Source of the DNA: Nitrospirales bacterium
GTDB lineage: Bacteria > Nitrospirota > Nitrospiria > Nitrospirales > UBA8639
Assembly (NCBI GenBank): GCA_963555755.3
Contig: OY820905.2
Span: forward strand, 4,096,001 to 4,160,000
DNA: 64,000 nt
Direction of reading: 5' to 3'
Numbering within the stretch: the stretch's first letter is position 1; every line of letters starts with the position of its first letter. Shown here piece after piece: positions 134-46,537 of this stretch. The position numbers and the translations under genes are program-made. Under the pieces are notes generated by a model, which saw only the letters and a program-made list of their open reading frames with translations, ran no database searches and was not told the DNA's origin.

Positions 134-377
134 ACAAGGTCAAGTCCTAGGGCTCAAGGAAAATGAAAAGGCCCCTCGGCGGGGAACAAGTGGGGCCGCA
201 TACTGGAGGATGTGCTGCGGAATTCGATTCACAAGGTTTACTTGGAGGGGTTTGGGCTAGAGGGATCGCGGAAAATTTTTGCGGTTTGGGAAGCGTCAGT
301 TGAATGTCCATAATACAAAGAACCAGGGCACAATCCTATTCCTTATATTCCTTGCGCTCCAAGTCCAAAAAGGAAAA

Positions 378-587
378 GAAAAGGGGTCAAATCTTAAAAG
401 GGGTCAAATCTTTGGTTGACTAAAACTTTAGATTATGTCCCCTGCTCGGAAGAGAAGATCGCGCTCCCAGAAAAAAGCAGTGGATGAAAGAGCGACGAGA
501 AGTTTGAAACGAAACTCTCAACCAAAGATTTGACCCCTTTTTGACCCCTTTTCAACCAAAGATTTGACCCCTTTTTGACCCCTTTTC
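378..587 (+). mobile_element. Non-autonomous TIR element (GAAAAGGGGTCA family), copy 1
   Basis: Inverted ends AAAGGGGTCAAATCTTTGGTTGA / TCAACCAAAGATTTGACCCCTTT with partial tandem reiterations; core near-identical to copies at 4366, 8607, 10170. Confidence 0.85.
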
Positions 588-700
588 TTTTTAAAAAAAC
601 GACAGCCCCCCCAGATGAGTGGCTGGGCCGAGGAGTCCTCATTCGCCCTCCCCTTTGTTGGTGTCAGCCTGGTGTCAAGCAACCGGACAACCTGAGCAAG

Positions 701-740
701 AGAGACCCGACGAGACCCGACGAAACCCGATGAAACCAGA
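701..740. repeat. Four 10-bp tandem repeats (agagacccga/cgagacccga/cgaaacccga/tgaaaccaga), possible integrase arm-type sites
   Basis: 10-bp periodicity read directly, ~85 bp from the att repeat. Confidence 0.5.
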
Positions 741-823
741 TGAGGTGAACCCTGCATGAATGAGGGGTGGGAGAGGAAATCGTCAAGCCAGACAACGACT
801 TGAACGATTCCCTTATAAAGGGC

Positions 824-878
824 TGGTGCCGAAGGCGGGAGTTGAACCCGCACACCCGTGAGGGCACTAGAACCTGAA
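824..878 (-). repeat. att site: 55-bp duplication of the 3' part of tRNA-Leu(CAG)
   Basis: tggtgccgaaggcgggagttgaacccgcacacccgtgagggcactagaacctgaa identical to 12445-12499. Confidence 0.95.
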
Positions 879-1580
879 ACGACTGATGGCTATTGGCTGT
901 TGTTGTTCATGGTTGGCCAGAGTCGCATGAACAGGGGATTTTCTCAAGGTCCCTGTTACACCAAGCTATGGCAAGCATTGGCAAGCTACGGCAGCCACTT
1001 GACAATTTCTTGACAAAATTTGAATGCGTCCACCTGTGGGGTAGGGGGGGGCACCCTTGCGCCAAGTACCTCAGTCTCGGAGTGACAGTCATGTCCCCAG
1101 TCATACACAGCCGAATTTTTGCCAAACACCCATCGCTGTTCCCCATGACCCACCTCCTTGCGCATTCTCGCGCGTTTCAGATGTGTCCACACTGATGGAG
1201 GAAGACCAAACCGCGTCACAAACAGCAAGCCTCATCGTGTCGGCGGTGGGGCTTTTTACGTTGGTCACTTGTCACAAGTGGCCCTTCACACAGAAGTATG
1301 TGCTGCGGAATCTGATTCACAAGGTCGTCTAGGAGAGGTCCGGGCCGGGGGGCTTGCGTAAAATTGTGGTGGTGGAGCATAGCTGCCTCCTCTCCACCCG
1401 GCAATTTATCGCGCAACAGGTGGCCTAATCACTGGGGGCAGGTCACCCCGAAATTGGGGTATCAAAAAAACTGACAATGAATTTCTGGTCCCCGAGGGTA
1501 ACAGTAAGATTTCCTTCCGTTTAAATACAGGAATTTGGGGGGTTTTATTAATATTTCTGTCTTTCTTTGGGGTTTTTCCC

Positions 1581-1599
1581 CTGTCAGAAAATTTGACAG
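1581..1599. promoter_or_regulatory. Palindromic enhancer-like site CTGTCA-N7-TGACAG (degenerate copies at 1459-1477 and 1690-1708); likely PEP-CTERM activator box
   Basis: Perfect palindrome upstream of a sigma54 promoter and a PEP-CTERM gene. Confidence 0.55.
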
Positions 1600-1829
1600 T
1601 TTCTACCATACGTCATTGGACGTACTTGCTGTTCCTTGAGTTGAATCTTTGGTACCTACGCTCTCTTTTGGACAAATCGAAATTCTCCCCAGTAAAAACT
1701 TTTGACAGTTTTCGCAACGAGCTCCAAACCAAAAAAAAGTCTTCATCGAAATATTATCCACAAAAAAACATCTATATTCTCAACAAGTTAGCTCTTATTC
1801 GAGAGCGACCCATCACCTGATTTTAACCG

Positions 1830-1845
1830 TGGCATACGTTTTGCT
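1830..1845 (+). promoter_or_regulatory. sigma54 -24/-12 promoter
   Basis: TGGCATACGTTTTGCT fits TGGCA-N6-TTGC, 75 bp upstream of the PEP-CTERM gene. Confidence 0.8.
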
Positions 1846-1920
1846 TAGTATACAACGCAACAGCAATTTAAATGGGTCGCCATAATATTAATCACTCAAT
1901 TACACCAAGGAGGTATTGCC

Positions 1921-2712
1921 ATGAAACACTCATCCACCACCACAATGAACAGACAAACATCATCTTTACAAGGAAAGACCGCCCGTGCCAAGAGAGGGCT
2001 GATGCGCATAGCCCTGTGTCTGGTCGGGATGGCTTTCACGCTCCTGCCACTGCCAGCCCTTGCCTTAACCTGGAATTTGGCAGACGATTTCTCGCTCTCC
2101 AATCCAAACGCCCCGTGGGAGTACGGAAAGTACACCGGGGGGCTGGACCAGAACACGTTCCAGCAATATGCTAATTCAGAAATTTTTCCTCTTGGGGGGT
2201 CCGGCATACTCCACATTCATCGTAACTCCGGAACGGATGATCCCAACATCATAAAGAACGTTGGCATGGAAGACACTTGCTGTAGTGGTCCAATAACTTT
2301 TCATGCCGGTGCGGTGACGTTTGGGGCGACCTTTGGACCCGCAGTCGTGGTTTGGACCGCGCCATTTGCTGGGATGTTCCAGGTGGATGCCACGTTTGCA
2401 ACCGTTCAACCAGGCGTGAATGTCTTGCCTACTGCTCACGTTTTTAATGGGACTGTCTTTGTCAACCTAGCTGCCATCCCTGTCTTTGGTACCACCAGTG
2501 ATTATAGTGGGCTCTTGGCGCTGGGATTGGGCGAGGAGATCCACTTCGTGGTAGCCCCGACTACGGAAGGAGGGCAGAAGACGGTCGAAGTCTCGGCGAT
2601 CATCAACAGCATTCCGCGCACCAACCCTGTCCCCGAACCCAGCACGATGTTGCTGCTCGGATCAGGCTTAGTCGGACTCATTGGCTACCGGATGAAGAAA
2701 GCACAAGCGTAA
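1921..2712 (+). CDS. PEP-CTERM sorting domain surface protein
   Basis: Signal peptide (..LPALA); C-terminal VPEPSTMLLLGSGLVGLIGYRMKK; RBS aggagg. Confidence 0.92.
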   Translation: MKHSSTTTMNRQTSSLQGKTARAKRGLMRIALCLVGMAFTLLPLPALALTWNLADDFSLSNPNAPWEYGKYTGGLDQNTFQQYANSEIFPLGGSGILHIHRNSGTDDPNIIKNVGMEDTCCSGPITFHAGAVTFGATFGPAVVVWTAPFAGMFQVDATFATVQPGVNVLPTAHVFNGTVFVNLAAIPVFGTTSDYSGLLALGLGEEIHFVVAPTTEGGQKTVEVSAIINSIPRTNPVPEPSTMLLLGSGLVGLIGYRMKKAQA

Positions 2713-2742
2713 ACGCATAGTCGATAATTTAGTCACACAATC

Positions 2743-2780
2743 AAAGAGCCTCACCGTTTCGGCGGTGGGGCTCTTTCTCT
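2743..2780 (+). terminator. Intrinsic terminator (duplicated at ~10792-10829; related copy ~1227-1257)
   Basis: Hairpin aaagagcctcaccg-tttcgg-cggtggggctcttt followed by pyrimidines. Confidence 0.7.
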
Positions 2781-2866
2781 TGGCCGCATTCATCAAGGTC
2801 TGTCACTGACCCAGAGACAGAGCTACAGACCCTATTTTCAATAACTGGACAATACATCCCCAAGCC

Positions 2867-3282
2867 ATGAACATCAGAATAATTCAGTGGAATATTTCAA
2901 TGAAATGCAAGGCCGAAAAAATAGCGTACTGCTTATCCCGCTATATTCATGGCCCCACCATTATTACCTTGCAAGAAGTTTTAAAATCCACATATGCCCA
3001 GATTGCGTCTGTGCTGACCCCTCCTGGAAGAGCGTACAGTCTTGCTTTACGAAAAGCCGGAAACCATGAAGGAAGAAATCGTAAAATGGGTGTCGCGACA
3101 TTCGTTTTCGAAGGCAGAATACCTCATTACGAACTCGTATCACGTAGTATTTTTCCAGAAAGAACCTTGTTTTCGACATGCCAATTCGAGGGGAAGAATA
3201 TTTCCTTGTATCGCACAGGCTTTAGGCGTAACCCTCTCGGAGTTAGTCGGCGATCAACCACAATCAACCAAAAGGAGGTCCG
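2867..3282 (+). pseudogene. Truncated endonuclease/exonuclease/phosphatase-family gene joined to an XRE-HTH C-terminal remnant
   Basis: MNIRIIQWNI..ITLQEV EEP N-terminal motifs; another frame from ~3209 reads IAQALGVTLSELVG. Confidence 0.6.
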
Positions 3283-4470
3283 ATGGGACGGACAAAACGA
3301 AAGGACGGGTATTACGTCGAGTTTCCCGTCATTGACGATGGGAAGGTCTTGACGTTAGCGAGAGGCACGCCTGGTGCCAAGGTGAAACGGTGGCGCGTCG
3401 GGTGCCGTAACAAAACGATGGCTCAAGACCAGGAAACTATTATCAAGAACAAGCTTCTCAACGGAACAATGGTAAGCGTTCGGGCAAAGCTGGCAATAAT
3501 GACCTTCGGCCAATGGGCCAAAGAATATGTGGAGATTGAAGAAGTGAAGTGTCTCCGCTCCTACACTGAGCGATGCCAGCGAATTACCGTGGTCCTTGTT
3601 CCATTCTTCGGCAAGACATTGTTGCAGGACATTACGGCCAAAGATGTAGAAGCCTTCCGCCAGGAGCGGGGGGAGGGGCGTGCTGTGGCTACCGTCAATG
3701 TGGATCACAACCTATTGAAGCACATGTTAAAGCATGCCATGAAGCGCGATTTGATTATGAGGAATGTGGCGTCTTTGGTCACAGCGCCGAAACCAAAGAA
3801 CGCTCGCAATCGAGTGCTCGAACCTGACGAGTGGAACCGGCTCTATGGTGCCGCGCCCGAATGGTTCCAGCCAGTGCTGTTGACGGGCTACCACACGGGG
3901 ATGCGACTAGAGGAAATCCTGACGCTCACGTGGGATCGGGTGGATCTGGAGAAGGGCCGCATGTTCCTTCCTGGACATCTGACCAAAACAGGGCAGGATC
4001 GTACCGTCCCTTTGACGCCGATGCTTCGGAAGGAACTGCAACAACTCCGGGACTATGGTGGCGTTGCTCGAATTCAAGGCTTGGTGTTTCAGAAGGATGG
4101 CCAGAAGATTAACCACAGCTATCGCGTGGTGAAGGAGTTATGCGAGGAGCAGCACATTCCGAACTTCGTCTTCCATGACTTGCGGCATTGTGCTGTCACG
4201 AATTTAGCGGATTCTGGAGTAGAGATTGAGACGATCATGAAAATCGTCGGGCATTCCAGTATTGAAATGTTCCTACGTTACCGCACCATCACGGCGGATA
4301 AATTAGACACCGCCATGTCCAGCCTTAACACGCTAATAACACGGCGTCAAAACGCCGCTCGCCAAGAAAAGGGGTCAGAAAAGGGGTCAAATCTTTGGTT
4401 GACTAAAACTTTAGATTATGTCCCCTGCTCGGAAGAGAAGATCGCGCTCCCAGAAAAAAGCAGTGGATGA
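3283..4470 (+). CDS. Tyrosine recombinase/integrase, copy with last 7 aa replaced by 34 aa from the TIR element
   Basis: GMRLEE, HDLRH, GH..Y catalytic motifs; identical to 11332-12438 up to ..NAARQ. Confidence 0.85.
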   Translation: MGRTKRKDGYYVEFPVIDDGKVLTLARGTPGAKVKRWRVGCRNKTMAQDQETIIKNKLLNGTMVSVRAKLAIMTFGQWAKEYVEIEEVKCLRSYTERCQRITVVLVPFFGKTLLQDITAKDVEAFRQERGEGRAVATVNVDHNLLKHMLKHAMKRDLIMRNVASLVTAPKPKNARNRVLEPDEWNRLYGAAPEWFQPVLLTGYHTGMRLEEILTLTWDRVDLEKGRMFLPGHLTKTGQDRTVPLTPMLRKELQQLRDYGGVARIQGLVFQKDGQKINHSYRVVKELCEEQHIPNFVFHDLRHCAVTNLADSGVEIETIMKIVGHSSIEMFLRYRTITADKLDTAMSSLNTLITRRQNAARQEKGSEKGSNLWLTKTLDYVPCSEEKIALPEKSSG

Positions 4471-4529
4471 AAGAGCGACGAGGAGTTTGAAACGAAACTC
4501 TCAACCAAAGATTTGACCCCTTTTTTTTT
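4366..4529 (+). mobile_element. Non-autonomous TIR element, copy 2
   Basis: Same core and inverted ends as copy 1; sits at the integrase / P450 breakpoint. Confidence 0.85.
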
Positions 4530-4988
4530 ATCATGGTCGAGAACTCGAATTTCACCCTCCCTCCAGGACCCCATCATGCGCTGTGTATATTCCGCCGTGA
4601 CTTTCACCAACCCATCTATTTGATGGCAAGGAAAGCAGCGTTGGACTAACTGTCGTTGCCGAATCCAACTAGCACCTTCGCTAGACATTAACCCATTGCC
4701 AAGTACATTCCAGGTAAAATCCTTTGGGGGACGTGACAAATTCCTGCTAAAAATTCGATGATTGGTTGTCAGGACGGTTTCGATAAGCTCGGGATGACAT
4801 AACAGGTATGCCCTTATGCCGGGAAAGCGAAGGCCTACCACATCACCATACTCGCGCGCGCATTGGGAAACAAACCCTAACGGGTCTCTTCTATACTCTA
4901 GAAGGTTGCCAAAAATGGGGTTGCCTTTAGGCCCAGGCGGAAAGGATTTAGCCGTCACGTAAGCGTACCTTTTCAAAAGGATGTACAA
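4530..4988 (-). pseudogene. Cytochrome P450 N-terminal fragment, truncated by the TIR element
   Basis: PPGPKGNPIFGNLLEYRRDPL..YGDVV..GNGLMSSEGASWIRQRQLV; no heme-Cys region. Confidence 0.8.
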
Positions 4989-5023
4989 AGGAACAACTCA
5001 TTGAACTTGACTCCCCTGAAACT

Positions 5024-6097
5024 CTACTTCTGACGCCAAAGCAACAAATAACCGGTGATCAATTGAATCGAAATCCCAATCCCCACGACGACATAAAGCA
5101 GTTTTGTGAACAATCCTCCGAAATAACCCGCGTGAAGAGGGACATCAAGGTTAATGAAGCGTTGTCCCATTGACGCTGTACGACTGTCTTCTGTTCGAAT
5201 CACGTCTCCACTATGTGGGTCGATATAGACCACACTTGATCCCCTCGGATTGGTATCCTCGGAAAACCGCTTTCGGACTTGAAAAGGCTGCCTAGGTCCT
5301 AAGGGCATTCGAATCATGACGATTTTTCCACCAGAAAGTGTCGTATTCGCAATGTGTACAAGATCGGATACTCGCTGAGGCCTTAGAGGAGCCTCGGATA
5401 ATGTATGTGATGCCAGTGGAGGATTTCCGTTTGGGCCCTTGGCTAGGCTTTGAACCAAATTTCCAACTAGCGGAAAGGAGAAATAGACACCCGTTAAGGC
5501 AATAACCAGCACAACAATGGCTGAATGTATTCCCCACATATTATGCATATCCAAAACGGCATGCTTCCATCCTGAATTTAATCTGAGACGCCAAATGGTC
5601 TTGAGTGTGTTAGGTGATCTCCTCCACCATAGGATCAGGCCTGTTAGTGTCGAGACAATTAGTAGAATACTCCCCATGCCATTCAGAGTTATTCCAATAG
5701 GCCCTCCTAGAAATAGATCCATATGAAAAATTAATATAAACCCCATCAGTGATCCACTCATAGTCCTGGAACCTAAGATTTCACCGGAATACGGGTTAAC
5801 ATAGATGCGGGAATTCCACGAATTGATAAGTAGTTCGTAGACTCCTTCAGGTGACCTGGGGAACGTAATTGAGATGATTCGATCTGGAGAACGGGTACTT
5901 TGAACGTTGGTCATAATCTCTTCAAGAGATAAAATTTCCCCCTGCGGCGTAACTCGAAGCAGTTGAGGATTCAGCCATTCATCAATTTCGGAATGGAACA
6001 CGAGAATACTTCCTGTCGTACCCATCAGGAGAAAATATACGCCAATATACAGATTTAAATAACGATGAATACTATGAAAAATTCTTTGTGGCTGCAT
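5024..6097 (-). CDS. PepSY-associated TM helix protein (PiuB-like)
   Basis: IHRYLNL..TGSILVF, YVNPYSGEILG, FHMDL, MHNMWG, LHAG histidine motifs. Confidence 0.88.
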   Translation of the reverse strand: MQPQRIFHSIHRYLNLYIGVYFLLMGTTGSILVFHSEIDEWLNPQLLRVTPQGEILSLEEIMTNVQSTRSPDRIISITFPRSPEGVYELLINSWNSRIYVNPYSGEILGSRTMSGSLMGFILIFHMDLFLGGPIGITLNGMGSILLIVSTLTGLILWWRRSPNTLKTIWRLRLNSGWKHAVLDMHNMWGIHSAIVVLVIALTGVYFSFPLVGNLVQSLAKGPNGNPPLASHTLSEAPLRPQRVSDLVHIANTTLSGGKIVMIRMPLGPRQPFQVRKRFSEDTNPRGSSVVYIDPHSGDVIRTEDSRTASMGQRFINLDVPLHAGYFGGLFTKLLYVVVGIGISIQLITGYLLLWRQK

Positions 6098-6151
6098 AGC
6101 TTGGTTCCTAGATCACGAAGAAGTAAATATCCACGGGCTTACCCCCCCTGG

Positions 6152-8055
6152 CAGGGCCATTTCATTCTTTTTATAAGCAAGGGATTCCATGAGGTTTTTT
6201 GTGCCCTCTTTTTCAGGGCAGGGCCATGCGGATGGCTAAATGGGGCTTGCCCCAGAGCAGTCTACACGCCTGCGCGATATTGGTGTAGCCTTTCAGGCGT
6301 AAGAGACTGATGGCATAGCGTCTCAGACAGGTCATGACCATTGGGCCATTGAGACTTCGTATCTGACTCCTGTCTTCATCAAAGGTGACGTCCAACACAT
6401 AATGCTGCTTATTCTCCACACTCCAATGCTTTCGGTTTTGCGAGAGGATGGTCTTCGGCCCCGCCTTGTCTTTGGACTGACTCGTGACACCGCAGACCGC
6501 TTCGACGGTCGTGAGGCCCTGCTTGAGATGCGTCACTTCCCTCTCAATGCAGAAGACTTGCTGGACATGAGGAAAGTTGACATAGGCATTCAGGGAGTCA
6601 TCGCACCAGATCCTGCGGGTCGTGATCTGCCCATGGCCTTTCTCGGTGGTGGCATAATCGCACCGGCGTGCTCGCAACGCTAAGGCCTCAATGTCGTGCT
6701 TCAAGGTGGGCTGGTTTCCCTTGACGGTGAAGACGAAGTCGGCGCCGCGTTCGTGCACCAGGTACTCGGCAATCTCTTTCTGGGTGAGGAGCGCATCCGC
6801 CGTGATCACCTTCCCTGCGATCTCGAGCGCATCTAACAGGGGCCGCACGCAGGGGATCTCATTGGTCTTGGAGTGAACTTTTTTTGGGTGAGGTGGCGCC
6901 CGGCTTGATGGGTGACGGCGCTGAGGACGTGGGGCTGTTCGCTTGGGACCTTCGACGTCCCCCGCATGGTCTTCCCATCAATGGCAATGCCCTGATCCTC
7001 CCCGCCGAAGGTGTCCAGCCACCGGCCGAGCAGGGTATCGACTTCACAGGGGTCGACGGCCGTGATAAAGCGGTAAAGAGTGCTGCGGCTCGGGACGAGG
7101 TAGCGCCCCCCTCGCTGAGTACAGCCTAGCCGCTTGCGCATCGGCTGCGATAACTGCTGGGCCCAGTCCGAGATCGCTTCATAGCCGCGCGCGCCGCACA
7201 AGGTGGCACAGAACATGATCGCCGTGAGGGCGCGTCGGGTGTGCCGTTGCCCTTGCAAATGGCGGGGATCGGTCAGCTGCACCACATACGTAAAGAGGGA
7301 GTCCGTCTGTTTTGTATTCAATCTCATCTGAGGCGCTTCTCCTTTCTGATAGGGCTGATCAAGCATCGGGCGTGCAAGGATCTCTCGGGCTTGGGGATGC
7401 AGCCGCACGACTAGGATGCGCTTCGGTCTCTCATGCTGAACATAACACGTGTTCGACTTGCGAAACCCTCGTGTCAGACCGAGCTCGTGCCACCCGGCGG
7501 CCCGATAGCAGGTCCCGGTGAAGCGGGCAGGATCGACGAAGGTCTCTAAGAGGAGCAAGGGGTAGCCGTGGTACAGTTGCCAATCGGCCGAGATCCGTTT
7601 CGCGCAGAGCGACAGGACTTTCGAGGCGAGGTTCTTTTGCGAACAGCCCGGCAGCATGAGAAACCAGGTGTTGTTGGCCAGTAAATGGAGTCGTTGCCAT
7701 TGAAAACAGGGGGGCCAGCCGATCCAGTGGTCTCGCGGTCTCGATTTGAGGGCCGCCGCCGCAAACACCAGCAAGGCCAGCCAGCGATCCTGCACACAGG
7801 CGAGATATTGTATCGATTGGCCAATCAGCGGGGCATGACCGAGGTAGTGGTGTCTGTCGAGAAGGGTCTTGAAGGCGTCCTTTTCGTCTCGGACAATTGG
7901 GCGAACCACGACTTGCCTCAGATCAATGTCCGGCTGTCCGCTTGGCGATTCGTCTGGCATACAAAAGAGTATGCCGTAAACGAAAAGAAAAAGCCAGCCT
8001 AAATCGATTATTCCTTATTATCTATAAAGTTACACTTTAATATGAAATAGCCCTG
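6152..8055 (-). mobile_element. ISAs1-family insertion sequence
   Basis: IRs CAGGGCCATTTCAT / CAGGGCTATTTCAT; 10-bp target duplication CCCCCCCTGG at 6142-6151 and 8056-8065. Confidence 0.92.
6213..7960 (-). CDS. DUF4338 domain + ISAs1 DDE transposase, joined by a -1 frameshift at A AAA AAG (6878-6885)
   Basis: ORF1 has HHYLG..LETFVD..GTCYRAAGW then IAIDGKTMRG; -1 frame gives KVHSKTNEIP into ORF2 (ITADAL, VKGNQP, HWSVEN). Confidence 0.88.
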
Positions 8056-8606
8056 CCCCCCCTGGTCCGCCGCTCTAGCCTTGATAGATAACATCAGGTC
8101 AAAGCCGTCCGAGTGCAAAGAGCCCTGGTGAAATAGCCGACAACGACGGAACAGCTCTTTCCTTACATGGCATTAATTCTTCTCTTCAGCTCGCCGTCCT
8201 CCGCCCAGGATTTTCTTCAGCTTTTTTTCGAACACACTTCAGAGTATGCTTTGACACCGAGATGACTCAGACCACACCTTGCACGTCAATGCGAAGAATT
8301 GGGTGCTCGTCCAATTCGGCAAACACACGGTCCAATACGTCCCTTGAAAGAGCACGGTATCCTGGCGTAGTAGGCCGGTGGCCAAAAATTCGGTTCGCCC
8401 TCACGACGTGTTCCCTGTTAAGCAACAGACCAAAGATGATCCATGGGCCTACGTTATGTCCACAGGACATCCCTTTAAGACGTCACAATATTTCCTATTG
8501 ATTTGGAGAATATGGAAGTTCTGGAAGTCCATAGTTTAGCCAATGATCAATGGTGACTAATAAACGGAACGAAACGCCCGATTTGATTGAGAAGACAAAA
8601 AGATAC

Positions 8607-8824
8607 AAAAGGGGTCAAATCTTTGGTTGACTAAAACTTTGAAAAGGGGTCAAATCTTTGGTTGAAAAGGGGTCAAATCTTTGGTTGCCTAAAACTTTAG
8701 ATTATGTCCCCCTGCTCGGAAGAGAAGATCGCGCTCCCAGAAAAAAGCAGTGGATGAAGACGAGGAGTTTGAAACGAAACTCTCAACCAAAGATTTGACC
8801 CCTTTCTGACCCCTTTCCCCTTTC
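8607..8824 (+). mobile_element. Non-autonomous TIR element, copy 3
   Basis: Three left-end reiterations, stuttered right end; core has small indels. Confidence 0.85.
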
Positions 8825-8856
8825 TAAACCGTCTTTTTTCCCAAGGTTTATAACAC

Positions 8857-9159
8857 CTACCGAAGTTGTAGTTCTAGTTTTAAGCCAACTGCTTCCGCAG
8901 CCTTTTTCATAGTGTGCAACGTCACCGATTCATTTTCTGGATCTAGTAAGCGATCCAATTGAGATCGGCTGGTTTCCATGTGGGAAGCCATGGCTGCCTT
9001 CGATAGATTCTTTCGTTCCATGGCTTCGCTCAGTTTGTATGACAGTACTTTTTTAATCGCATCAGTTTGACAATCTTCGTACTGTCCTTCCGCTTTCAGT
9101 AATCCTTCAAGCGTGGACCCGGATCGTGGGTTAATCTTTTTCCGTTTCATATCGCTCAT
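8857..9159 (-). CDS. XRE-family antitoxin
   Basis: LSKAAMASHMETSRSQLDRLLDP HTH; overlaps the upstream toxin gene. Confidence 0.85.
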   Translation of the reverse strand: MSDMKRKKINPRSGSTLEGLLKAEGQYEDCQTDAIKKVLSYKLSEAMERKNLSKAAMASHMETSRSQLDRLLDPENESVTLHTMKKAAEAVGLKLELQLR

Positions 9160-9505
9160 GCTCCTTCTTGCGTTTGTTTGCGAGCTTTAATTCTTTTTCT
9201 GGGGTCTTTTGTGATTTCTTCACAAATCCATGAAGCAGCACCATTTCAGGACCACTCACATAGAAAAACACTCGTGCAATTCGTCCATCCGGTAAATCAC
9301 TGCGGACTTCACGAAGCCCAGCATAGCCTGATAAAGACCTACACAGTGGTTGGCCACAGGGCCAACCAAATTCGACGGTCATGATGTCCCTGCCGATGAT
9401 CTTCCGATTGGCACCAGCCAATTCCAACAGCCATTCCCTAACAGGCTCTTTCCCACTGGGAAGCCTGTAAAACATAGCTGTAATGACCTTCTGAACTTGA
9501 CTCAC
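9131..9505 (-). CDS. RelE/ParE-family (Gp49-like) toxin
   Basis: GKEPVREWL..LREVRS..ARVFF..LLHGFVKKSQKTP. Confidence 0.88.
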   Translation of the reverse strand: MSQVQKVITAMFYRLPSGKEPVREWLLELAGANRKIIGRDIMTVEFGWPCGQPLCRSLSGYAGLREVRSDLPDGRIARVFFYVSGPEMVLLHGFVKKSQKTPEKELKLANKRKKEHERYETEKD

Positions 9506-9652
9506 ATATTATAGTACCAAAAAAGGTACATTCCTGCAATCTTTTTTTCGAGGTTAAATATCCCAATGTCCCACTGAAGGTTGGCTTTTTCCGAAATGTG
9601 CCTTAGAGTTAAAAGTTGGCCAGAAAAGGTAAGGGAGAAACTCTCAAAAAGG

Positions 9653-9804
9653 GGTTCTGTCGCAAATAATAGAGTTGTGAGTTACGCCACTGGTTTTCAT
9701 GTTGGACCAAGTTGAAAAACTCCAGTAAAGTTGACAATTCTCGTCTGCGGGACACGGAGATAAAACCCCTTATTGCCTTCAAAAACATTGTTTGCGACAG
9801 AACC
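9653..9804. mobile_element. 152-bp MITE with IS6-like ends
   Basis: Inverted repeats GGTTCTGTCGCAAATAAT / GGTTCTGTCGCAAACAAT (17/18); no clear target duplication. Confidence 0.65.
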
Positions 9805-10169
9805 GAAAAAATCGCTTCCGTCAGCATACGTTAGGCCCCCTCTCGAAACGCGGCTATTTTTTCAGAGGTTTTTAAAATCTGGGGGGAATCTATCCCCTTC
9901 CTGCCAAGTTATTTGTTTGGCCATTTCTTTTTCAACTTCTCTACCAGCCACTGCCATTTCCCATGTTCGTGTGGTAATTTCAATATCCCATCCAAATTAG
10001 CTCCGGTAAGGTTTCCCCCTCCCTTCTGAATCTATCTTGAAAGACCCTGCGGTTGATGAATAGAGCCCCGTCCGATATTCTCCTGAGGCGTGTTGGAATG
10101 AACGCAGATTCGCTAGTCGACTTGCCGCCCCAAATCCCTTCATGAGGGTGCTATGCCCTGTGCGTTTTA

Positions 10170-10391
10170 GAAAAGGAAAAGGGGTCAAATCTTTAAAAGA
10201 AAAGGGGTCAAATCTTTGGTTGACTAAAAAAGGGGTCAAATCTTTGGTTGACTAAAACTTTAGATTATGTCCCCTGCTCGGAAGAGAAGATCGCGCTCCC
10301 AGAAAAAAGCAGTGGATGAAAGAGCGACGAGGAGTTTGAAACGAAACTCTCAACCAAAGATTTGACCCCTTTTTCTTTTTGACCCCTTTTC
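10170..10391 (+). mobile_element. Non-autonomous TIR element, copy 4
   Basis: Same core; right end abuts the start of the 2-kb duplication. Confidence 0.85.
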
Positions 10392-10761
10392 AGTCGTGGT
10401 TTGGACCGCGCCATTTGCTGGGATGTTCCAGGTGGATGCCACGTTTGCAACCGTTCAACCAGGCGTGAATGTCTTGCCTACTGCTCACGTTTTTAATGGG
10501 ACTGTCTTTGTCAACCTAGCTGCCATCCCTGTCTTTGGTACCACCAGTGATTATAGTGGGCTCTTGGCGCTGGGATTGGGCGAGGAGATCCACTTCGTGG
10601 TAGCCCCGACTACGGAAGGAGGGCAGAAGACGGTCGAAGTCTCGGCGATCATCAACAGCATTCCGCGCACCAACCCTGTCCCCGAACCCAGCACGATGTT
10701 GCTGCTCGGATCAGGCTTAGTCGGACTCATTGGCTACCGGATGAAGAAAGCACAAGCGTAA
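10391..10761 (+). pseudogene. 5'-truncated copy of the PEP-CTERM gene
   Basis: Identical to the C-terminal ~122 codons of 1921-2712; no signal peptide or promoter. Confidence 0.85.
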
Positions 10762-10915
10762 ACGCATAGTCGATAATTTAGTCACACAATCAAAGAGCCT
10801 CACCGTTTCGGCGGTGGGGCTCTTTCTCTTGGCCGCATTCATCAAGGTCTGTCACTGACCCAGAGACAGAGCTACAGACCCTATTTTCAATAACTGGACA
10901 ATACATCCCCAAGCC

Positions 10916-11331
10916 ATGAACATCAGAATAATTCAGTGGAATATTTCAATGAAATGCAAGGCCGAAAAAATAGCGTACTGCTTATCCCGCTATATTCATG
11001 GCCCCACCATTATTACCTTGCAAGAAGTTTTAAAATCCACATATGCCCAGATTGCGTCTGTGCTGACCCCTCCTGGAAGAGCGTACAGTCTTGCTTTACG
11101 AAAAGCCGGAAACCATGAAGGAAGAAATCGTAAAATGGGTGTCGCGACATTCGTTTTCGAAGGCAGAATACCTCATTACGAACTCGTATCACGTAGTATT
11201 TTTCCAGAAAGAACCTTGTTTTCGACATGCCAATTCGAGGGGAAGAATATTTCCTTGTATCGCACAGGCTTTAGGCGTAACCCTCTCGGAGTTAGTCGGC
11301 GATCAACCACAATCAACCAAAAGGAGGTCCG
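10916..11331 (+). pseudogene. Duplicate EEP-family/XRE remnant
   Basis: Identical to 2867-3282. Confidence 0.6.
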
Positions 11332-12438
11332 ATGGGACGGACAAAACGAAAGGACGGGTATTACGTCGAGTTTCCCGTCATTGACGATGGGAAGGTCTTG
11401 ACGTTAGCGAGAGGCACGCCTGGTGCCAAGGTGAAACGGTGGCGCGTCGGGTGCCGTAACAAAACGATGGCTCAAGACCAGGAAACTATTATCAAGAACA
11501 AGCTTCTCAACGGAACAATGGTAAGCGTTCGGGCAAAGCTGGCAATAATGACCTTCGGCCAATGGGCCAAAGAATATGTGGAGATTGAAGAAGTGAAGTG
11601 TCTCCGCTCCTACACTGAGCGATGCCAGCGAATTACCGTGGTCCTTGTTCCATTCTTCGGCAAGACATTGTTGCAGGACATTACGGCCAAAGATGTAGAA
11701 GCCTTCCGCCAGGAGCGGGGGGAGGGGCGTGCTGTGGCTACCGTCAATGTGGATCACAACCTATTGAAGCACATGTTAAAGCATGCCATGAAGCGCGATT
11801 TGATTATGAGGAATGTGGCGTCTTTGGTCACAGCGCCGAAACCAAAGAACGCTCGCAATCGAGTGCTCGAACCTGACGAGTGGAACCGGCTCTATGGTGC
11901 CGCGCCCGAATGGTTCCAGCCAGTGCTGTTGACGGGCTACCACACGGGGATGCGACTAGAGGAAATCCTGACGCTCACGTGGGATCGGGTGGATCTGGAG
12001 AAGGGCCGCATGTTCCTTCCTGGACATCTGACCAAAACAGGGCAGGATCGTACCGTCCCTTTGACGCCGATGCTTCGGAAGGAACTGCAACAACTCCGGG
12101 ACTATGGTGGCGTTGCTCGAATTCAAGGCTTGGTGTTTCAGAAGGATGGCCAGAAGATTAACCACAGCTATCGCGTGGTGAAGGAGTTATGCGAGGAGCA
12201 GCACATTCCGAACTTCGTCTTCCATGACTTGCGGCATTGTGCTGTCACGAATTTAGCGGATTCTGGAGTAGAGATTGAGACGATCATGAAAATCGTCGGG
12301 CATTCCAGTATTGAAATGTTCCTACGTTACCGCACCATCACGGCGGATAAATTAGACACCGCCATGTCCAGCCTTAACACGCTAATAACACGGCGTCAAA
12401 ACGCCGCTCGCCAAGTCACTGAAATCACTGCACTTTAA
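11332..12438 (+). CDS. Tyrosine recombinase/integrase (intact, 368 aa)
   Basis: R, HxxR, H, Y catalytic motifs; adjacent to the tRNA. Confidence 0.93.
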   Translation: MGRTKRKDGYYVEFPVIDDGKVLTLARGTPGAKVKRWRVGCRNKTMAQDQETIIKNKLLNGTMVSVRAKLAIMTFGQWAKEYVEIEEVKCLRSYTERCQRITVVLVPFFGKTLLQDITAKDVEAFRQERGEGRAVATVNVDHNLLKHMLKHAMKRDLIMRNVASLVTAPKPKNARNRVLEPDEWNRLYGAAPEWFQPVLLTGYHTGMRLEEILTLTWDRVDLEKGRMFLPGHLTKTGQDRTVPLTPMLRKELQQLRDYGGVARIQGLVFQKDGQKINHSYRVVKELCEEQHIPNFVFHDLRHCAVTNLADSGVEIETIMKIVGHSSIEMFLRYRTITADKLDTAMSSLNTLITRRQNAARQVTEITAL

Positions 12439-12444
12439 TTGAAT

Positions 12445-12530
12445 TGGTGCCGAAGGCGGGAGTTGAACCCGCACACCCGTGAGGGCACTAGAACCTGAAT
12501 CTAGCGCGTCTGCCATTCCGCCACTTCGGC
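12445..12530 (-). tRNA. tRNA-Leu(CAG)
   Basis: Reverse complement GCCGAAGTGGCGGAATGGCAGACGCGCTAGATTCAGGTTCTAG...GTTCAACTCCCGCCTTCGGCACCA; long variable arm, encoded CCA. Confidence 0.97.
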
Positions 12531-14796: not shown

Positions 14797-14893
14797 AGAG
14801 GCATTGTAGTCAAGGCTTGAAGCCGGTGTCGAGGAAGGGCGGGAAACGTGAGGAATATTGCAGGGTGGGCTATGCCCACCATTTATTTTTGTA

Positions 14894-15137
14894 CGGGGTT
14901 TCGTCCTCGCGCGACGAGGCCCTTTTGTTTCGGCAAAAGGACCCAAAACCATTTTTGCCCGTGCGCGGCCCCTCCGACCCTGCCGGAGCAGGTTCTCCGG
15001 GGTGCCTGGTCCACCGCCCCGAATCAAGATGGCTCGGAAACTCGCTCCGAGGTGCAAGGCCACCTCTCCGCTCAGACAGCCCTCGCCAAAGCAGTAGGAT
15101 TCGGGACGGCGGCCCAGCCGCGCCCAACGCAGGTGAA
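14894..15137 (+). repeat. Structured ~240-bp dispersed repeat, copy A
   Basis: Shares cttttgtttcggcaaaag...aaaacca...ccgaatc...ctcgctccg...ctcgcc...gattcgg with seven other copies. Confidence 0.8.
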
Positions 15138-15263
15138 TGGCAGGGCATAAAAAATCAAGCCCCGCACTGGGTAGTGCGGGGTTTATGAATCACAATGGGG
15201 TGTGGCGATAGATCAAACTAGAAAAACCGAAGTGTTTGTTTTTATCTTTTCATTCTGCAGGCA

Positions 15264-15461
15264 TCCCCGCCTTCGGATGCGGCGGAGCCGGAGCCCCGAA
15301 TCGACTTTTTGGCGAGGGTTGTTTGAGCGGAGCGAGTTCCCTCGCCATGTTATTCGGGGCGTAGGCGGAGGGACCCCCTTGGGGTCGCATACGGGCGGAA
15401 ATGGTTTTGGTCACTTTTGCCGAAACAAAAGTGACTCGGCGTGTGGGGGCGAAACCCCACA
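15264..15461 (-). repeat. Structured repeat, copy B
   Basis: Reverse-complement copy of the same family. Confidence 0.8.
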
Positions 15462-15522
15462 TTATAATTCTTGTGCCTAACCTGGCACGTTCCAGAAATA
15501 ACTACAGATTTCTCCCTCCGGT

Positions 15523-35428: not shown

Positions 35429-35563
35429 GTCATTCCCGACATTTTTTATCGGGAATCCAGGTTTTCCCTCTCACACTTCAACCCCTCTTTTGTCATTTCG
35501 ACCCATGGGAGAAATCTCTCGTTCGGTAATGGGGGGAGATTTCTCGCTCCGCTCGAAATGACA
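35429..35563. repeat. REP-like palindrome cluster (similar cluster at 35940-36076)
   Basis: gtcattcccgac..atcgggaatccag plus gtcatttcgacc..gagaaatct / agatttctc..cgaaatgaca. Confidence 0.75.
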
Positions 35564-35599
35564 AATAAGTTTTCTTGTAAATGGTTGAAAAGTTTTTAT

Positions 35600-35872
35600 G
35601 TGGGGTGTCGTCCCCACGCGACGAGGCACTTGTGTTTCGGCAAAAGTGCCCAAAACCACGTTTGCCCGTGCATGGCCCTGCGGGTGTCTCTGCCTCCGCC
35701 CCGAATCCTTCGACTCCGCTCAGGACAGGTCAGATCAGATGGCTGCGCAACTCGCGGAATCTATCCTGAGCCCTTCGACAAGCTCAGGCCAGGCCTTGTC
35801 GAAGGGCTCAAACAGTGCTCGCCAAAGGGGTCGATTCGGTGCTCCGTCTCCGCCGCGCACGAAGGCGGGGCC
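35600..35872 (+). repeat. Structured repeat, copy C, with nested ccttcgac..ctcagg palindromes
   Basis: Same family as copy A. Confidence 0.8.
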
Positions 35873-36129
35873 GAAGTGACATTTCTATATGTTGAAGGGA
35901 TGGGAAAGGTTTGTTAAGTTGAGGTCGTTTAATTTTTCACGTCATTCCCGACATTTTTAATCGGGAATCCAGGTTTTTCCCTCTCACCCTTCAACCCTTC
36001 CTTCGTCATTTCGACCCTTGGGAGAAATCTCTCGTTCGACAATGAGGGGAGATTTCTCGCTCCGCTCGATATGACAATCAATGATTATGTAAGGTTGCTC
36101 CTTCATTTTCTGCCTCGATCTTGGGACTC

Positions 36130-36246
36130 CGCGTTGGGCGAGGCGGAGGGCTGCGCACAGGCGAGAATGGTTTTGGGTCCTTGCGCCGAAACAAAAGGCC
36201 TGCCCTGAGTCTTGGCGAGGGGACCTCGTCGCGCGGGGGGGGGGGG
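36130..36246 (-). repeat. Structured repeat, copy D (shortened; remainder at 38825-38846 beyond the IS)
   Basis: atggttttgggtcc..gccgaaacaaaagg..cctcgtcgcgcg | IS | aaccccgc. Confidence 0.7.
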
Positions 36247-42550: not shown

Positions 42551-42625
42551 TACTTGTTTATGGCTTGCCGAAAAGAATCGCGTCATTTCCGACATCCTTA
42601 ATCGGGAATCCAGGTTTATTTTAAT

Positions 42626-42846
42626 CGGGGTTTCGCCCCCGAGCGACGAGGCACTTTTGTTTCGGCAAAAGGACCCAAAACCACTTCCGCCCGTGCGCGG
42701 TCCCTCCGAGCCTGCTCAGAAGCAGGCTCTCCGGGATGCCTCCGCCTCCGTCCCGAATCAAGATGGCGAGGGAACTCGCTCCGCTCAAACAGCCCTCGCC
42801 GAGAGGTCGATTCGGGACTCCGGCTCCGCCGCGTCCGAAGGCGGGC
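42626..42846 (+). repeat. Structured repeat, copy E
   Basis: Same family; preceded by a REP at 42581-42613. Confidence 0.8.
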
Positions 42847-42978
42847 AGTCATTACAGAAATAGTTTTTTATTGAACATCACTCGTTCATTGTCTTGTCAG
42901 GTCTTAGGGCATATACTTTCAACCTTGTGACAAAAAGAGTAGAAGATCTGTATTGCGGTAGTAGAGTAGGGGGACAAG

Positions 42979-43248
42979 ATGCCAGCTATTTCGATGTTCT
43001 ATGGAATTATTATTTACATGTATTTCCTTGATAACAAGCAGCATCAAAGACCGCATATTCATGTCAAATATCAGGAACATGAAGTTATTGTTGCCATCCC
43101 GGATGGTGGGGTTCTTGAAGGGAGTATCCCCAACCCAAAAATGAAGTTGCTCCAAGCTTGGGTTGAGTTGCATAAGGAAGAATTGGAAGCGGACTGGGAA
43201 CTTGCTGTGTCTGGTCAACAGCCTTTTAAGATTGAACCGTTGAGGTAA
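42979..43248 (+). CDS. DUF4160 family protein (putative toxin)
   Basis: MPAISMFYGIIIYMYF..HQRPHIHVKY. Confidence 0.88.
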   Translation: MPAISMFYGIIIYMYFLDNKQHQRPHIHVKYQEHEVIVAIPDGGVLEGSIPNPKMKLLQAWVELHKEELEADWELAVSGQQPFKIEPLR

Positions 43249-43251
43249 ATT

Positions 43252-43485
43252 ATGAATCCAAGAATTGTAGAAGTAATGCCCACCGATGATTACAAACTCA
43301 AGTTGGTTTTTACCAATGGGGAGCGAGGGGTGTATAACTGTTTCGACTTGTTAGACTTTGGCGTGTTTCAAGAGCTGCAGGATAAGAACTATTTCAAGCA
43401 AGCCAAAGTGTTGGACGGAACTGTGGTCTGGCCTCATGAGCAAGATATCTGTCCCGATACCCTCTATCTCGATTCAGAAAAATAG
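43252..43485 (+). CDS. DUF2442 family protein (putative antitoxin)
   Basis: YKLKLVFTNGE..GTVVWPHEQDICPDTLY. Confidence 0.88.
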   Translation: MNPRIVEVMPTDDYKLKLVFTNGERGVYNCFDLLDFGVFQELQDKNYFKQAKVLDGTVVWPHEQDICPDTLYLDSEK

Positions 43486-43602
43486 GGAGGTCGGGTGAAT
43501 GGGTAATCAGGCAAGGTAAGGTCTCTATTGTTCTTTCTAATCCTTCCAAGTATTTGAGTTATTCCTCCAGTCGTAACCGGGAATCCAGAATTAATTTTAT
43601 TC

Positions 43603-43872
43603 AGGGTTTTGCCCTCGAGCGACGAGGCCCCTTCGACTGGGCTCAGGGCAGGCCTTTTGTTTCGGCAAAAGTGCCCAAAACCACTTCCGCCCGTTCACGG
43701 TCCCTCCGGGCCTGCTTCGAAGCAGGTTCTCCGGGATGCCTCCGCCTCCGTCCCGAATCAAGATGGCGAGGGAACTCGCGGAGTCTATCCTGAGCTTGTC
43801 GAAGGACTCAAACAGTCCTCGCCCGAGAGGTCGGATTCGGGGCGATGGCCCAGTCGCGCCCAACGCGGTGAA
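43603..43872 (+). repeat. Structured repeat, copy F
   Basis: Same family, with two nested palindrome insertions. Confidence 0.8.
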
Positions 43873-44240
43873 GGGCCAAGACTAGAGTGCCAAATGAACA
43901 GAAAGGAGGAGCATCCCATCGATATCGCAGTCATGTCGAGCCCTCGACTAATTTTCAACGTGGCTGACCCACAGAGGTTACCTTAGGAGTAAATGGCTGA
44001 CAGAAAAGGGTAGCGTTCTCTTTTTCAGGTGCAACCGAGGACCAGGTGGCGTTCGCAGTCCGCTGGATGGTATATGAACCCATTCAAGGAGGGGTGTTAT
44101 GCCGATCCGCATAAGATGCTGAAATAATTGGACTCATGCGTATAACCAATTGAAACGACAACAGTTCCGGCGTATTCTTCAGAAATATCGATGGCGTGTT
44201 ATACGGATATAAACCCGAAGATCCTTCTCTTACACGGATC

Positions 44241-44260
44241 CATCTAAACATTGTTAGGTG
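44241..44260 (+). other. attI-like integron recombination site
   Basis: CATCTAAACATT-GTTAGGTG; GTTRRRY core complementary to the cassette R'' CACCTAAC. Confidence 0.55.
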
Positions 44261-44288
44261 TACAAAACTGGAGTGCAATTTCAAATCC

Positions 44289-44792
44289 ATGGAACTAAAA
44301 ATCAAATCAATGCTTGCAGTATTTTTGCTATTAACTTCTGGCGCTGCCTTGGGAATAGAGCAATCTTTTATCGCTGATACAGAGCGATTTGGCGTTCGTT
44401 TATTTTTAGTTCCAGACGCAGATGCATTTGTCGAAATGTGGTCAAAGCCAGAAACACCAAAATTGACCGTATTCAAACAAACAACAGTTAACACTAAATT
44501 CGCGGGCATCATTCTTTATTGGGGTGGTGGTGCCAATTCCAATGGCGAGTGTAATATTCAATTGCAAACCACGGTCTTAGAGAGAGGCACTGTTCTCGCA
44601 ACAGGCCCAGAAATGCCCGTATGCTCTCGGCACCAACCGCCCAAACCAAGTGTCTTGTCACTTTCTGACACAATCATCGACCTTATTGCATCCGGTGACC
44701 CAACGCAATTGGTCGTTCAAGTAAAAGTAACCGACAAAATCAATAACGAAACCTTGTTGGTTGAGGCGCCTATTGAAGTGGTGGCAGAGTGA
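44289..44792 (+). CDS. Secreted hypothetical protein (integron gene cassette)
   Basis: Signal peptide; bounded by GTTAGGT and an attC. Confidence 0.75.
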   Translation: MELKIKSMLAVFLLLTSGAALGIEQSFIADTERFGVRLFLVPDADAFVEMWSKPETPKLTVFKQTTVNTKFAGIILYWGGGANSNGECNIQLQTTVLERGTVLATGPEMPVCSRHQPPKPSVLSLSDTIIDLIASGDPTQLVVQVKVTDKINNETLLVEAPIEVVAE

Positions 44793-44796
44793 GCGC

Positions 44797-44898
44797 ACCT
44801 AACAAGGCATTGCACTCGGACTCCGCCTACTGTCACATTTTTTGCGAAAAGCGCAAAAAATGCGCCAGCAGGCTACGCCAGTGAATGCGGCGTTAGGT
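44797..44898 (+). other. Integron attC site
   Basis: ACCTAAC...GTTAGGT; GCATTGCACT / AGTGAATGC with extrahelical base; central hairpin; starts 4 bp after the stop codon. Confidence 0.88.
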
Positions 44899-45124
44899 TT
44901 CGAAGAGGACTGGCTAGTTGGAAGATGTACGGTCTACATTGGTGGATCCGGCTATCACACTGTCGGGATTTCGAATATGGATTCACGGTCGAGAGTGTCC
45001 GGAAAGGGGGACGTTCCTTTTTTGAAGGCGCATGAATTGGGGGCAAGCATGAGTATTGAGTTCGTAGAGTTTCCCCTCCAAGCCCAATTTGAAAACTTGG
45101 TTTGTTTCTTTCTTGAGTGTCTTA

Positions 45125-45317
45125 CCGCCTTCGGGCGCGGCGGAGCCTCCGTACCGAATCGACCTCTCGGCGAGGGCTGTTTGAGCGGAGCGAGTTCCCT
45201 CGCCATCTTATTCGGTACGGAGGCGGAGGAACCCCCATGGGGCCGCGCACGGGCGAAAATGGTTTTGGGCACTTTTGCCGAAACAAAAGTGCCTCGTCGG
45301 CGGGGGCGAAACCCCGC
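45125..45317 (-). repeat. Structured repeat, copy G
   Basis: Same family; REP at ~45376-45408. Confidence 0.8.
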
Positions 45318-45523
45318 ATTAATAATTTTGACTAGAAATCTGGCAAATAGTAGATGGCGAGGAAGAGGGGAAGACCTGGATCCCCGATAAAGGATGTCGG
45401 GGATGACAGCAATGGCGGCAAAGTAAATGATTCGTATGCGTGAATCCTCGGTGGGAAATTCAGAAATTGCGGAAAAACGGAAATGGATCTATAATGGTTC
45501 CATAATAGAACCATTTGGAGGCT

Positions 45524-45763
45524 ATGATGTCCGTCAATCTTTCTGTCAAAAATGTCCCAAAGGAATGGGTGGAGCAATTACGGCAACGAGCCCACAAGCA
45601 TCATCGCTCGCTTCAAGGTGAACTGCTGGCCATACTTGAGGAAAGCGTGAATCAGCAAGACAAGATTTCTCCACAAGGCCTCTTAGCAGAAGTACGGCAA
45701 CGTGGACTGCGCACACCAAAAGAGTCGGTGGCAATGATTCGCAAGGATCGTGATGGCCACTAA
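45524..45763 (+). CDS. FitA/Arc-like ribbon-helix-helix antitoxin
   Basis: NLSVKNVP..LRQRAHKHHRSLQGELLAILE. Confidence 0.87.
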   Translation: MMSVNLSVKNVPKEWVEQLRQRAHKHHRSLQGELLAILEESVNQQDKISPQGLLAEVRQRGLRTPKESVAMIRKDRDGH

Positions 45764-46136
45764 GGTCATTGATACATCAGCCTTGGCCGCCGTCGTGTTT
45801 GCTGAACCCGATGGTCAGCGGATTGCGGCTCAAATGGAAAATCATGATCTCCTTGCTCCATTCCTACTACCCTTTGAGTTGGCGAATGTTTGTCTCATGA
45901 AGATTCGAAGGCATCCTGCCCAAAAAACGTTATTGTTGGGTGGTTTTGAGATGGTCGGTCGTCTGCCGCTGACGTTCATGGCGGTCAACATGACTGAGGT
46001 CCTTGGCCTAGCCCAAGACAAGGCTCTGACAGCTTACGATGCTTCTTTTTTCTGGTTAGCGAAGACGCTCGATGTCGAATTGATGACCTTGGATAAGACC
46101 TTAGCTAAGGCGTTTGCATCTCGAAAAGGCAAATAG
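45753..46136 (+). CDS. vapC: VapC PIN-domain toxin
   Basis: VIDTSAL, FELAN, LTAYDA, LMTLD. Confidence 0.88.
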   Translation: MATKVIDTSALAAVVFAEPDGQRIAAQMENHDLLAPFLLPFELANVCLMKIRRHPAQKTLLLGGFEMVGRLPLTFMAVNMTEVLGLAQDKALTAYDASFFWLAKTLDVELMTLDKTLAKAFASRKGK

Positions 46137-46217
46137 GGCCTGCTTGCCAGGCAGGGGGTATTAATGAGTTTGTCCTTCCCCTCCATTTGAAAAAATTAGT
46201 TTGTTTCTTGAGTGCCT

Positions 46218-46537
46218 TGCCGCCTTCGGGCGCGGCGGAGCCTCCGTACCGAATCGACCTCTCGGCGAGGGCTGTCTGAGCGCAGCGAGTTCCCGAGCCA
46301 TCTTATCGGTACGAAGGCGAAGGCACCCGGAAGAGAATGATCAAAACGTCCGTCTGCGGCGTTTTCGGCCCTTTGTCGTGCTCACGTACTAACGCGTACG
46401 CTGCGCGCGCCAAAGCGCCTGCGGCCTTGCTGACGAACGTTTTGATCATTCTCTGTAGGGCCGCCCACGGGCGAAAATGGTTTTGGGCACTTTTGCCGAA
46501 ACAAAAGTGCCTCATCGTGTGGGGGCGAAACCCTGCA
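46218..46537 (-). repeat. Structured repeat, copy H, containing a 123-bp inverted-repeat insert (46332-46454)
   Basis: Same family; insert bounded by AGAGAATGATCAAAACGT and its complement. Confidence 0.8.

Follow-up and report, generated by a model that had tools for sequence, protein, structure and literature searches.

Bacterial repeats bounded by terminal inverted repeats (TIRs) and paired with a Y1 transposase were named TIRtrons, or the TIRYT class, in 2013 (Di Nocera et al., PMC3733652), and correspond to TnpA-Y1 subclass 2.1 (Quentin et al., 2018; PMC6006769). The available text of both accounts describes a Y1 HUH transposase with a C-terminal DnaA-like helix-turn-helix (HTH), encoded between TIRs of the form GGGG[AT][CG]A[CG] that also occur as dimers or groups. 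The same text is without an insertion mechanism, end stutter, a carried outer tag of 4-5 nt, kilobase duplications or deletions, and cargo arrays. The window analyzed (64,000 nt of a Nitrospirales bacterium; GCA_963555755.3, contig OY820905.2, positions 4,096,001 to 4,160,000) carries four copies of a MITE (a miniature transposable element with inverted repeats) with TIRYT-type ends, each with its own distinct set of partial end copies (stutter). These elements have a partner transposase, a stutter with a fixed outer start and a variable inner stop, no short target duplications, kilobase duplications and deletions at block ends, and flank swaps at one end only. The class is already known and the junction anatomy is new. 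No account of TIRYT insertion products or mechanism was found in the literature searched, subscription papers and supplements excepted.

In IS91/ISCR elements and Helitrons, an HUH enzyme joins the donor 5' end to a target 3'-OH, captures flanking fragments and leaves no short duplication; these elements use Y2 or RepHel enzymes, and their two ends are unlike, a single ori facing a single ter. Unlike them, the elements described here have two equivalent inverted ends and a Y1 enzyme. In outcome they are like IS26/IS6 copy-in, for which the available text of He et al., 2015 (PMC4471558) describes same-orientation cargo arrays, cointegrates, adjacent deletions and inversions, and a majority of copies without matching flanks. 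IS26/IS6 differs in its DDE enzyme, attack by the element's 3'-OH, a fixed 8-bp duplication and no stutter, whereas here the enzyme is HUH and the offsets are variable and of kilobase size. REPtrons with TnpA-REP (Corneloup et al., 2021; PMC8266576) and IS200/IS605 peel-and-paste (PMC5027513), as far as their available text goes, share the catalytic core and the 5'-phosphotyrosine chemistry. They recognize hairpins and select cuts on one strand by guides, whereas here linear TIRs at both ends, a position-set cut, a variable tag and no precise excision signature were found.

The source genome is designated G000 and its contig C1; G002-G006 are genus relatives, L-numbers denote contigs of other assemblies, and X-numbers denote sequencing runs or contig sets. 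The 20-mer end of the MITE occurred 68 times in G000 (≤1 mismatch; reversed control 0) and was present in eight of 40 relatives. G000 had 17 Y1_Tnp matches. One Y1_Tnp gene (C1:761652-762611, 319 aa) lay between the same TIRs as the MITE, in an element at C1:761.6-762.6 kb; the MITE ends were identical to 25 nt of the right end and 27 nt of the left end of this element. The 319-aa protein matched Y1_Tnp (E 7.9e-12) and Bac_DnaA_C (E 7.7e-10) in Pfam, with a DnaA-type HTH at its C-terminus. H60-Y61-H62 and Y119 were invariant in 25 of 25 aligned relatives. Its closest protein matches came from Nitrospirales assemblies, and PDB searches with it matched DnaA chains and no Y1 structure. The gene was flanked by GGGGTCA TIRs, the eighth base being A, off the published C/G. 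In other taxa, 50 of 75 relatives' genes had such TIR pairs (75 of 77 relatives were used; L165 and L189, partial matches, were omitted). By their ends, the repeats are assigned as non-autonomous TIRYT/TIRtron elements, and the MITE would be moved by this 319-aa protein. The earlier note on this DNA, made from the letters alone, had named a link between GGGG ends and Y1/HUH transposases, and the partner element supports that link. TIRYT relatives were encoded in 552 of 603 scanned stretches (total estimated at about 1,300) and were rare on plasmids, with one of 72,556 plasmid-collection records at E ≤1e-30 in a search aimed at empty sites (cf. the RAYT groups of PMC5581495, available text).

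Other assignments were rejected. A DDE MITE or IS6-family element was set aside on two grounds: no gene other than Y1 was found between these TIRs, and there is no fixed short target duplication. IS200/IS605, which has no TIRs but subterminal hairpins and a fixed tetranucleotide target, was rejected on the presence of TIRs and an outer 4-mer that is not fixed, and REP/REPtron, in which hairpin REPs with a GTAG tag surround the gene, on flanks that are linear TIRs without that tag. Against IS91/ISCR stood the symmetric TIRs together with stutter and flank changes at both ends.

In the window, all four cores had one orientation, measured 134-138 bp and were bounded by GGGGTCAAATCTTTGGTTGA inverted repeats (GGGG...CCCC; Table 1). 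Copies 2 and 4 were identical over 138 nt; copy 1 differed by one substitution, and copy 3 by one substitution and small indels. The four copies, their shared orientation and their individual partial end copies had been seen in the earlier note, which put the core at about 145 bp rather than the 138 bp measured. As it also reported, copy 2 interrupts the integrase (seven codons short of its stop) and a P450 gene (after about 153 codons), copy 4 begins within the PEP-CTERM gene, and short target duplications are lacking: the best short direct repeat across each copy was 0-4 nt with up to 8 nt of trimming, which is the chance level. Copy 2 lacks the final C of its right end, and the stutter of copy 1 begins near 368. 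The left flank of copy 1 matched C1:4037002-4036440 (97%), the match ending at window position 369. There is an apparent hot spot here (C1:4036426-4036440): in strain contigs, a MITE of another subtype falls in homologous DNA on the strand opposite to this junction and at a distance of 13 bp from it; downstream of the same gene, copies were found in two further strains (contigs concerned: L121, L078, L101, L119).

Stutter was counted as perfect tandem units at 185 ends. It was present at 46 of 92 ends from six TIR families in G000, at 14 of 72 ends from other assemblies, and at one of 21 ends in the REPIN-like GGGGTCAGACTCGA family of G000. Of 81 perfect duplication steps, 78 were compatible with a start at -4/-5 from GGGG, while the inner stop varied. 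Unit lengths were 7-57 nt, with 11-13 nt in 57 of 81, and 57 of 81 units ended just after GGGGTCA; a second family contained a 434-nt unit (C1:2167734-2168168). The outer 4-mer took 34 forms across 117 ends, with position -1 being A in 91%, and the cut is therefore set by position, not sequence. A purine occupied -5 in 90% of ends (G in 42%). These outer bases travel with the element, yet differ between its ends. Uninterrupted alleles were available for 32 of 166 ends: homology stopped 3-6 nt before GGGG in 16, and in the other 16 the stop was blurred by substitutions or short units. In two pairs of contigs with equal flanks (L079 and L123; L099 and L109) the number of stutter units differed, so that either units grow or shrink in place or the short-read assemblies differ. 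An outward-shorter order of units was judged by eye to be inconsistent (about eight steps for, six against). Distant taxa showed stutter at 18 of 100 ends.

The GGGGTCAGACTCGATT repeats of G000 are inverted doublets of about 72 bp (C1:1067280-1067352, 1851029-1851103 and 1949511-1949582) with stutter at one of 21 ends, and a GGGGTCAGACTCGATT end lies near a 235-aa Y1 gene without a long C-terminus (C1:1284.9 kb). They form a natural control by which to judge what the HTH does.

The junctions of copies 2-4 were bridged, with 0-1 differences, by contigs from four studies: copy 2 by X8, copy 3 by X1 and X2, and copy 4 by X2 and X9. X1 and X2 may be the source sample, and this evidence consists of contigs; among the pieces listed, none bridged copy 1. 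Tandem duplications comparable to the stutter occurred at 18 of 20,000 random positions, at 0 of 1,905 GGGGTGA/GGGGACA/GGGGAGA sites and, for uncatalogued GGGGTCA sites, at 11 of 592. Neither the stutter nor the 68 occurrences of the 20-mer end is thus due to chance.

The composite layout of the window was overlooked in the earlier note. Positions 2342-4366 and 10391-12415 form an exact 2,025-bp duplication, giving the arrangement A-B-[copy2-C-copy3-D-copy4]-B-E within an integrase island, B being the duplicated segment and C and D cargo. The A-B join yields an intact PEP-CTERM gene and the B-E join an intact integrase, and one base is common to each block junction and the element's outer tag. 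Depth over the duplicated segment was about twice that of single-copy DNA (244 versus 117-132 in X1; 415 versus 208-222 for most single-copy pieces in X2). In place of four unrelated joins, the locus fits a single block, the insertion of which duplicated 2 kb of target. No donor site for C and D was found in G002-G006, where only short repeats of C or D matched, and no empty allele of the window was found in X9, X13, X11 or X10 (depth 2-5).

Two further blocks had measurable offsets. At C1:88-97 kb, four MITEs of identical type accompany a duplication of at least 617 bp (C1:87773-88389/94384-94999), interrupted by an IS6-like element and 845 bp long if complete; a 420-bp internal gene fragment lies between two of the MITE copies. 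The third block (C1:2217813-2226497) replaces 662 bp found in alleles L076 and L117. A flank could be traced for 16 of 30 full elements, and not one of the 16 was colinear within 300 bp. Five rows scored as colinear (offsets -347 to -3,428, and +2,684) were left out of the target duplications; these involved repeats, stutter or one contig entered in duplicate. The colinearity filter missed the traced right flank of copy 4. Four pairs of strain contigs 97-99% alike kept one junction and differed at the other: in three the second end was re-joined (L064/L096, L022/L105, L076/L117), and L081/L083 showed a 207-bp nested deletion. In L117, two sites that lie 50 kb from each other in G000 were joined with their order inverted (inversion-type). 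The reading of the earlier note that copies join DNA from different places is supported by these elements and strain pairs. Duplications in L193 and L190 were rejected as target duplications, lying as they do in repeated modules. Autonomous elements in other taxa had a short target duplication of at least 4 nt in 10 of 50 cases, compared with 324 of 2,450 shuffled pairs, i.e., at the chance level.

On balance, we lean towards a route in which each end is nicked, held as a 5'-phosphotyrosine and joined to any nearby 3'-OH, which would give stutter, adjacent deletions and IS26-like cointegrate arrays of reversed polarity. The transposase would nick 4-5 nt outside each GGGG end, on that end's 5' strand, and the element's 5' end would be held on the tyrosine until joined to whichever 3'-OH is near. 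If the flank's own 3'-OH were extended by a polymerase before re-ligation, a partial end copy would be left in place (stutter, 7-434 nt). If the 3'-OH belonged to a nick or nascent strand elsewhere, one end would gain a new flank and the other keep its old one (adjacent deletion or inversion). Joining of both ends to two 3'-OHs on opposite strands, with donor flanks priming the copying, would produce a cointegrate with the element duplicated, through a Shapiro-type intermediate of reversed polarity. In the window, a circle with C, copy 3 and D would have fused into the island. Copies 2 and 4 would be the pair of daughters, and the duplicated 2,025 bp would be what lay between the 3'-OHs; a fork, with its leading-strand and Okazaki ends, would produce a duplication of that scale. 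A two-step sister-chromosome route could yield the same product. Nicking at -4/-5 with joining to any 3'-OH would account in one step for the fixed outer and free inner stutter edge, the one-end swaps, and the lack of homology and of a fixed duplication, and the identity of copies 2 and 4, not shared by 1 and 3, fits a cointegrate with the element doubled. The offsets of the three blocks (-2,025, ≤-617 and +662 bp) are of Okazaki-fragment scale, although three cases make this a suggestion and no proof. HUH enzymes leave a 5'-phosphotyrosine, together with a 3'-OH able to start synthesis or to undo the link. According to the available text on TnpA-REP, adding an oligonucleotide that attacks the 5'-phosphotyrosine resolves it, and replication may be primed from the 3'-OH (PMC8266576); in that on IS608, the Y1 enzyme works at forks (PMC5027513).

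Several observations weigh against this route. Sequence alone cannot fix the polarity, i.e., whether the element's 5' or 3' end is joined. The link between the MITE and the 319-aa protein rests on shared ends, and traced flanks are biased to duplicated or repeated DNA, with about five unbiased strain comparisons. Measurable offsets come from only three blocks, one of them cut by the IS6-like element, and no reciprocal junction pair was found, such pairs having been looked for only within the flank-colinearity trace. In distant taxa only seven of 22 stutter steps include -4/-5 (range 3-13), and the offset is therefore family-specific. An older family-4 element (C1:1146649-1147659) occupies an orthologous intergenic site in G006 (88%), though with different immediate flanks; its flanking genes are colinear in G002-G004, and therefore not every copy joins distant loci. 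Four further regions of 12-14 kb from the genus relatives yielded a single colinear case and, at base level, no empty site.

The same enzyme could work with opposite polarity, the element's 3'-OH being freed 4-5 nt beyond CCCC and attacking phosphotyrosines at loosely chosen target cuts (copy-in, IS26-like polarity), with stutter arising where an end inserts into its own sister copy. This would yield identical junction sequences, TnpA-REP makes cuts on the 5' as well as the 3' side of its REP (PMC8266576, available text), and the last flank base, G in nine of ten junctions at offset 4-5, could be a target-cut preference. That G bias may also be a 1-nt microhomology, given the frequency of G at -5. 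Opposite polarity further requires frequent cuts at many inner positions of a second copy, while the stop of most units just after GGGGTCA is simpler as a polymerase stalled at a bound protein; we regard opposite polarity as unlikely. Rather unlikely, too, is a transposase that only nicks. In that case stutter, deletions and captures would come from host repair, and from slippage of replication where ends are nicked or blocked by protein, and arrays would be built as copies undergo homologous recombination with one another. Slippage could explain the same-flank alleles that differ in unit number, and direct 138-bp repeats can recombine, with copies long stable at one site. An outer start fixed at -4/-5 in 78 of 81 steps is not what slippage would produce, however, and the REPIN-like family hardly stutters; junction microhomology is mostly 0-2 nt, and no Ku was found in G000, a 99% complete genome. 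The last two findings also tell against the linker proposed in the earlier note, acting in fragment capture or end joining by host repair, and its abortive end synthesis is unsupported as a free-standing process, the data fitting transposase-made junctions.

Ordinary precise MITE insertion, with flanks later mismatched by unrelated deletions, insertion sequence (IS) activity and recombination in unstable islands and with the 2-kb duplication due to homologous integration of a circle, appears improbable. Copies do cluster in IS-rich islands and one element sits at a colinear site. In the traced cases, however, breakpoints fall exactly at element ends, none of the 16 traced elements was colinear within 300 bp, and a circle bearing the 2-kb segment would in its turn require that both ends be joined at a distance of 2 kb. 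The chance of an assembly artefact or a DDE-type MITE is very slight: tandem repeats can be mis-assembled and TIRs are generally typical of DDE elements, but the bridging contigs and the stutter in independent assemblies refute an artefact as far as contigs allow, and a DDE-type MITE is opposed by the Y1 gene between the TIRs and the lack of a fixed duplication.

Further mobile DNA was seen beside these elements. The high-copy IS within cargo C, missed by the earlier note, has an empty site in an X1 contig, and its first open reading frame (ORF) fuses a DruA-like domain to a DDE_Tnp_1-associated domain. Additional intergenic repeat families of about 100-300 bp, in both orientations, lie at window positions 14883-15473, 35434-36239 and 42587-46632. 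On C1, 16 group II intron-like sequences were found, and the 5' end of every one lies after the TGACC of an end of GGGGTCA type, in several families; a reverse transcriptase-bearing inner intron is nested in them. A 1.46-kb IS with CAATACTGTTCACTTAGAT ends, presumably IS4-like, has 21 copies on C1 (e.g., 176576-178050 and 361620-363155), nearly always in GGGTCAGGTCT of another TIRYT-type repeat and with about 11 bp duplicated.

Table 1. Features of the window and related sites (window positions unless C1 is named).
Feature	Position	Strand	Remark
MITE copy 1, stuttered ends	368..587 (core 400-537)	+	just outside integrase island
att direct repeat, 55 bp (3' part of tRNA-Leu)	824..878	-	island left end; 100% to 12444-12498
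Intact PEP-CTERM gene	1921..2712	+	target point of copy 4 right end at 2342/2343
2,025-bp target segment, first copy	2342..4366	+	3' half of PEP-CTERM gene; small ORFs; integrase interrupted 7 codons short of its stop
MITE copy 2	4366..4531 (core 4383-4520)	+	left end of composite block
P450 N-terminal fragment (cargo C)	4530-4988	-	remainder absent from G000
Cargo C	4532..8606		about 2.16 kb without the IS
PepSY-TM gene (cargo C)	5024-6097	-	
High-copy IS, 1.9 kb, unrelated to the MITEs	6151..8055	-	DruA-like and DDE_Tnp_1 ORFs; about 38 matches in G000; 10-bp duplication
MITE copy 3	8607..8823 (core 8669-8802)	+	three left ends
Cargo D, 1.35 kb	8824..10169		Gp49/RelE-like toxin and HTH antitoxin pair 8857-9505 (-)
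MITE copy 4	10170..10391 (core 10232-10369)	+	core matches copy 2 exactly; composite block ends here on the right
2,025-bp target segment, second copy	10391..12415	+	continues into intact integrase 11332-12438
tRNA-Leu(CAG) and right att repeat of island	12444..12530	-	
Bridging contigs, X1	8800-9653; 8056-8636; 4496-6141		
Bridging contig, X2	9775-10224		
Bridging contig, X8	2670-4986		
Bridging contig, X9	10344-10743		
Group II intron-like sites, e.g.	240707, 245518, 687526, 1381868, 2166623, 2226023		G000 C1

The element is a TIRYT member, is IS26-like in outcome and likely follows an undescribed HUH route. Tentatively, and with some doubt, TIRYT may represent a third mode of HUH transposition, a two-ended, reverse-polarity copy-in in which both 5' ends would be welded to fork 3'-OHs without target cutting, with Okazaki-scale duplications or deletions, and by which 150-bp satellites would build IS26-like cargo arrays across many phyla. 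The junctions offer a direct test: the cut site is defined, a single genome supplies a putatively cognate enzyme and MITE, and the products can be predicted, namely stutter, adjacent deletion and a cointegrate whose long duplication varies. If the favored route is true, a sequence-independent end-joining transposase would reshuffle kilobase gene fragments without the classic signature, and IS annotation would therefore miss such insertions; bacteria would have an undescribed way to shuffle kilobase pieces of their genomes.

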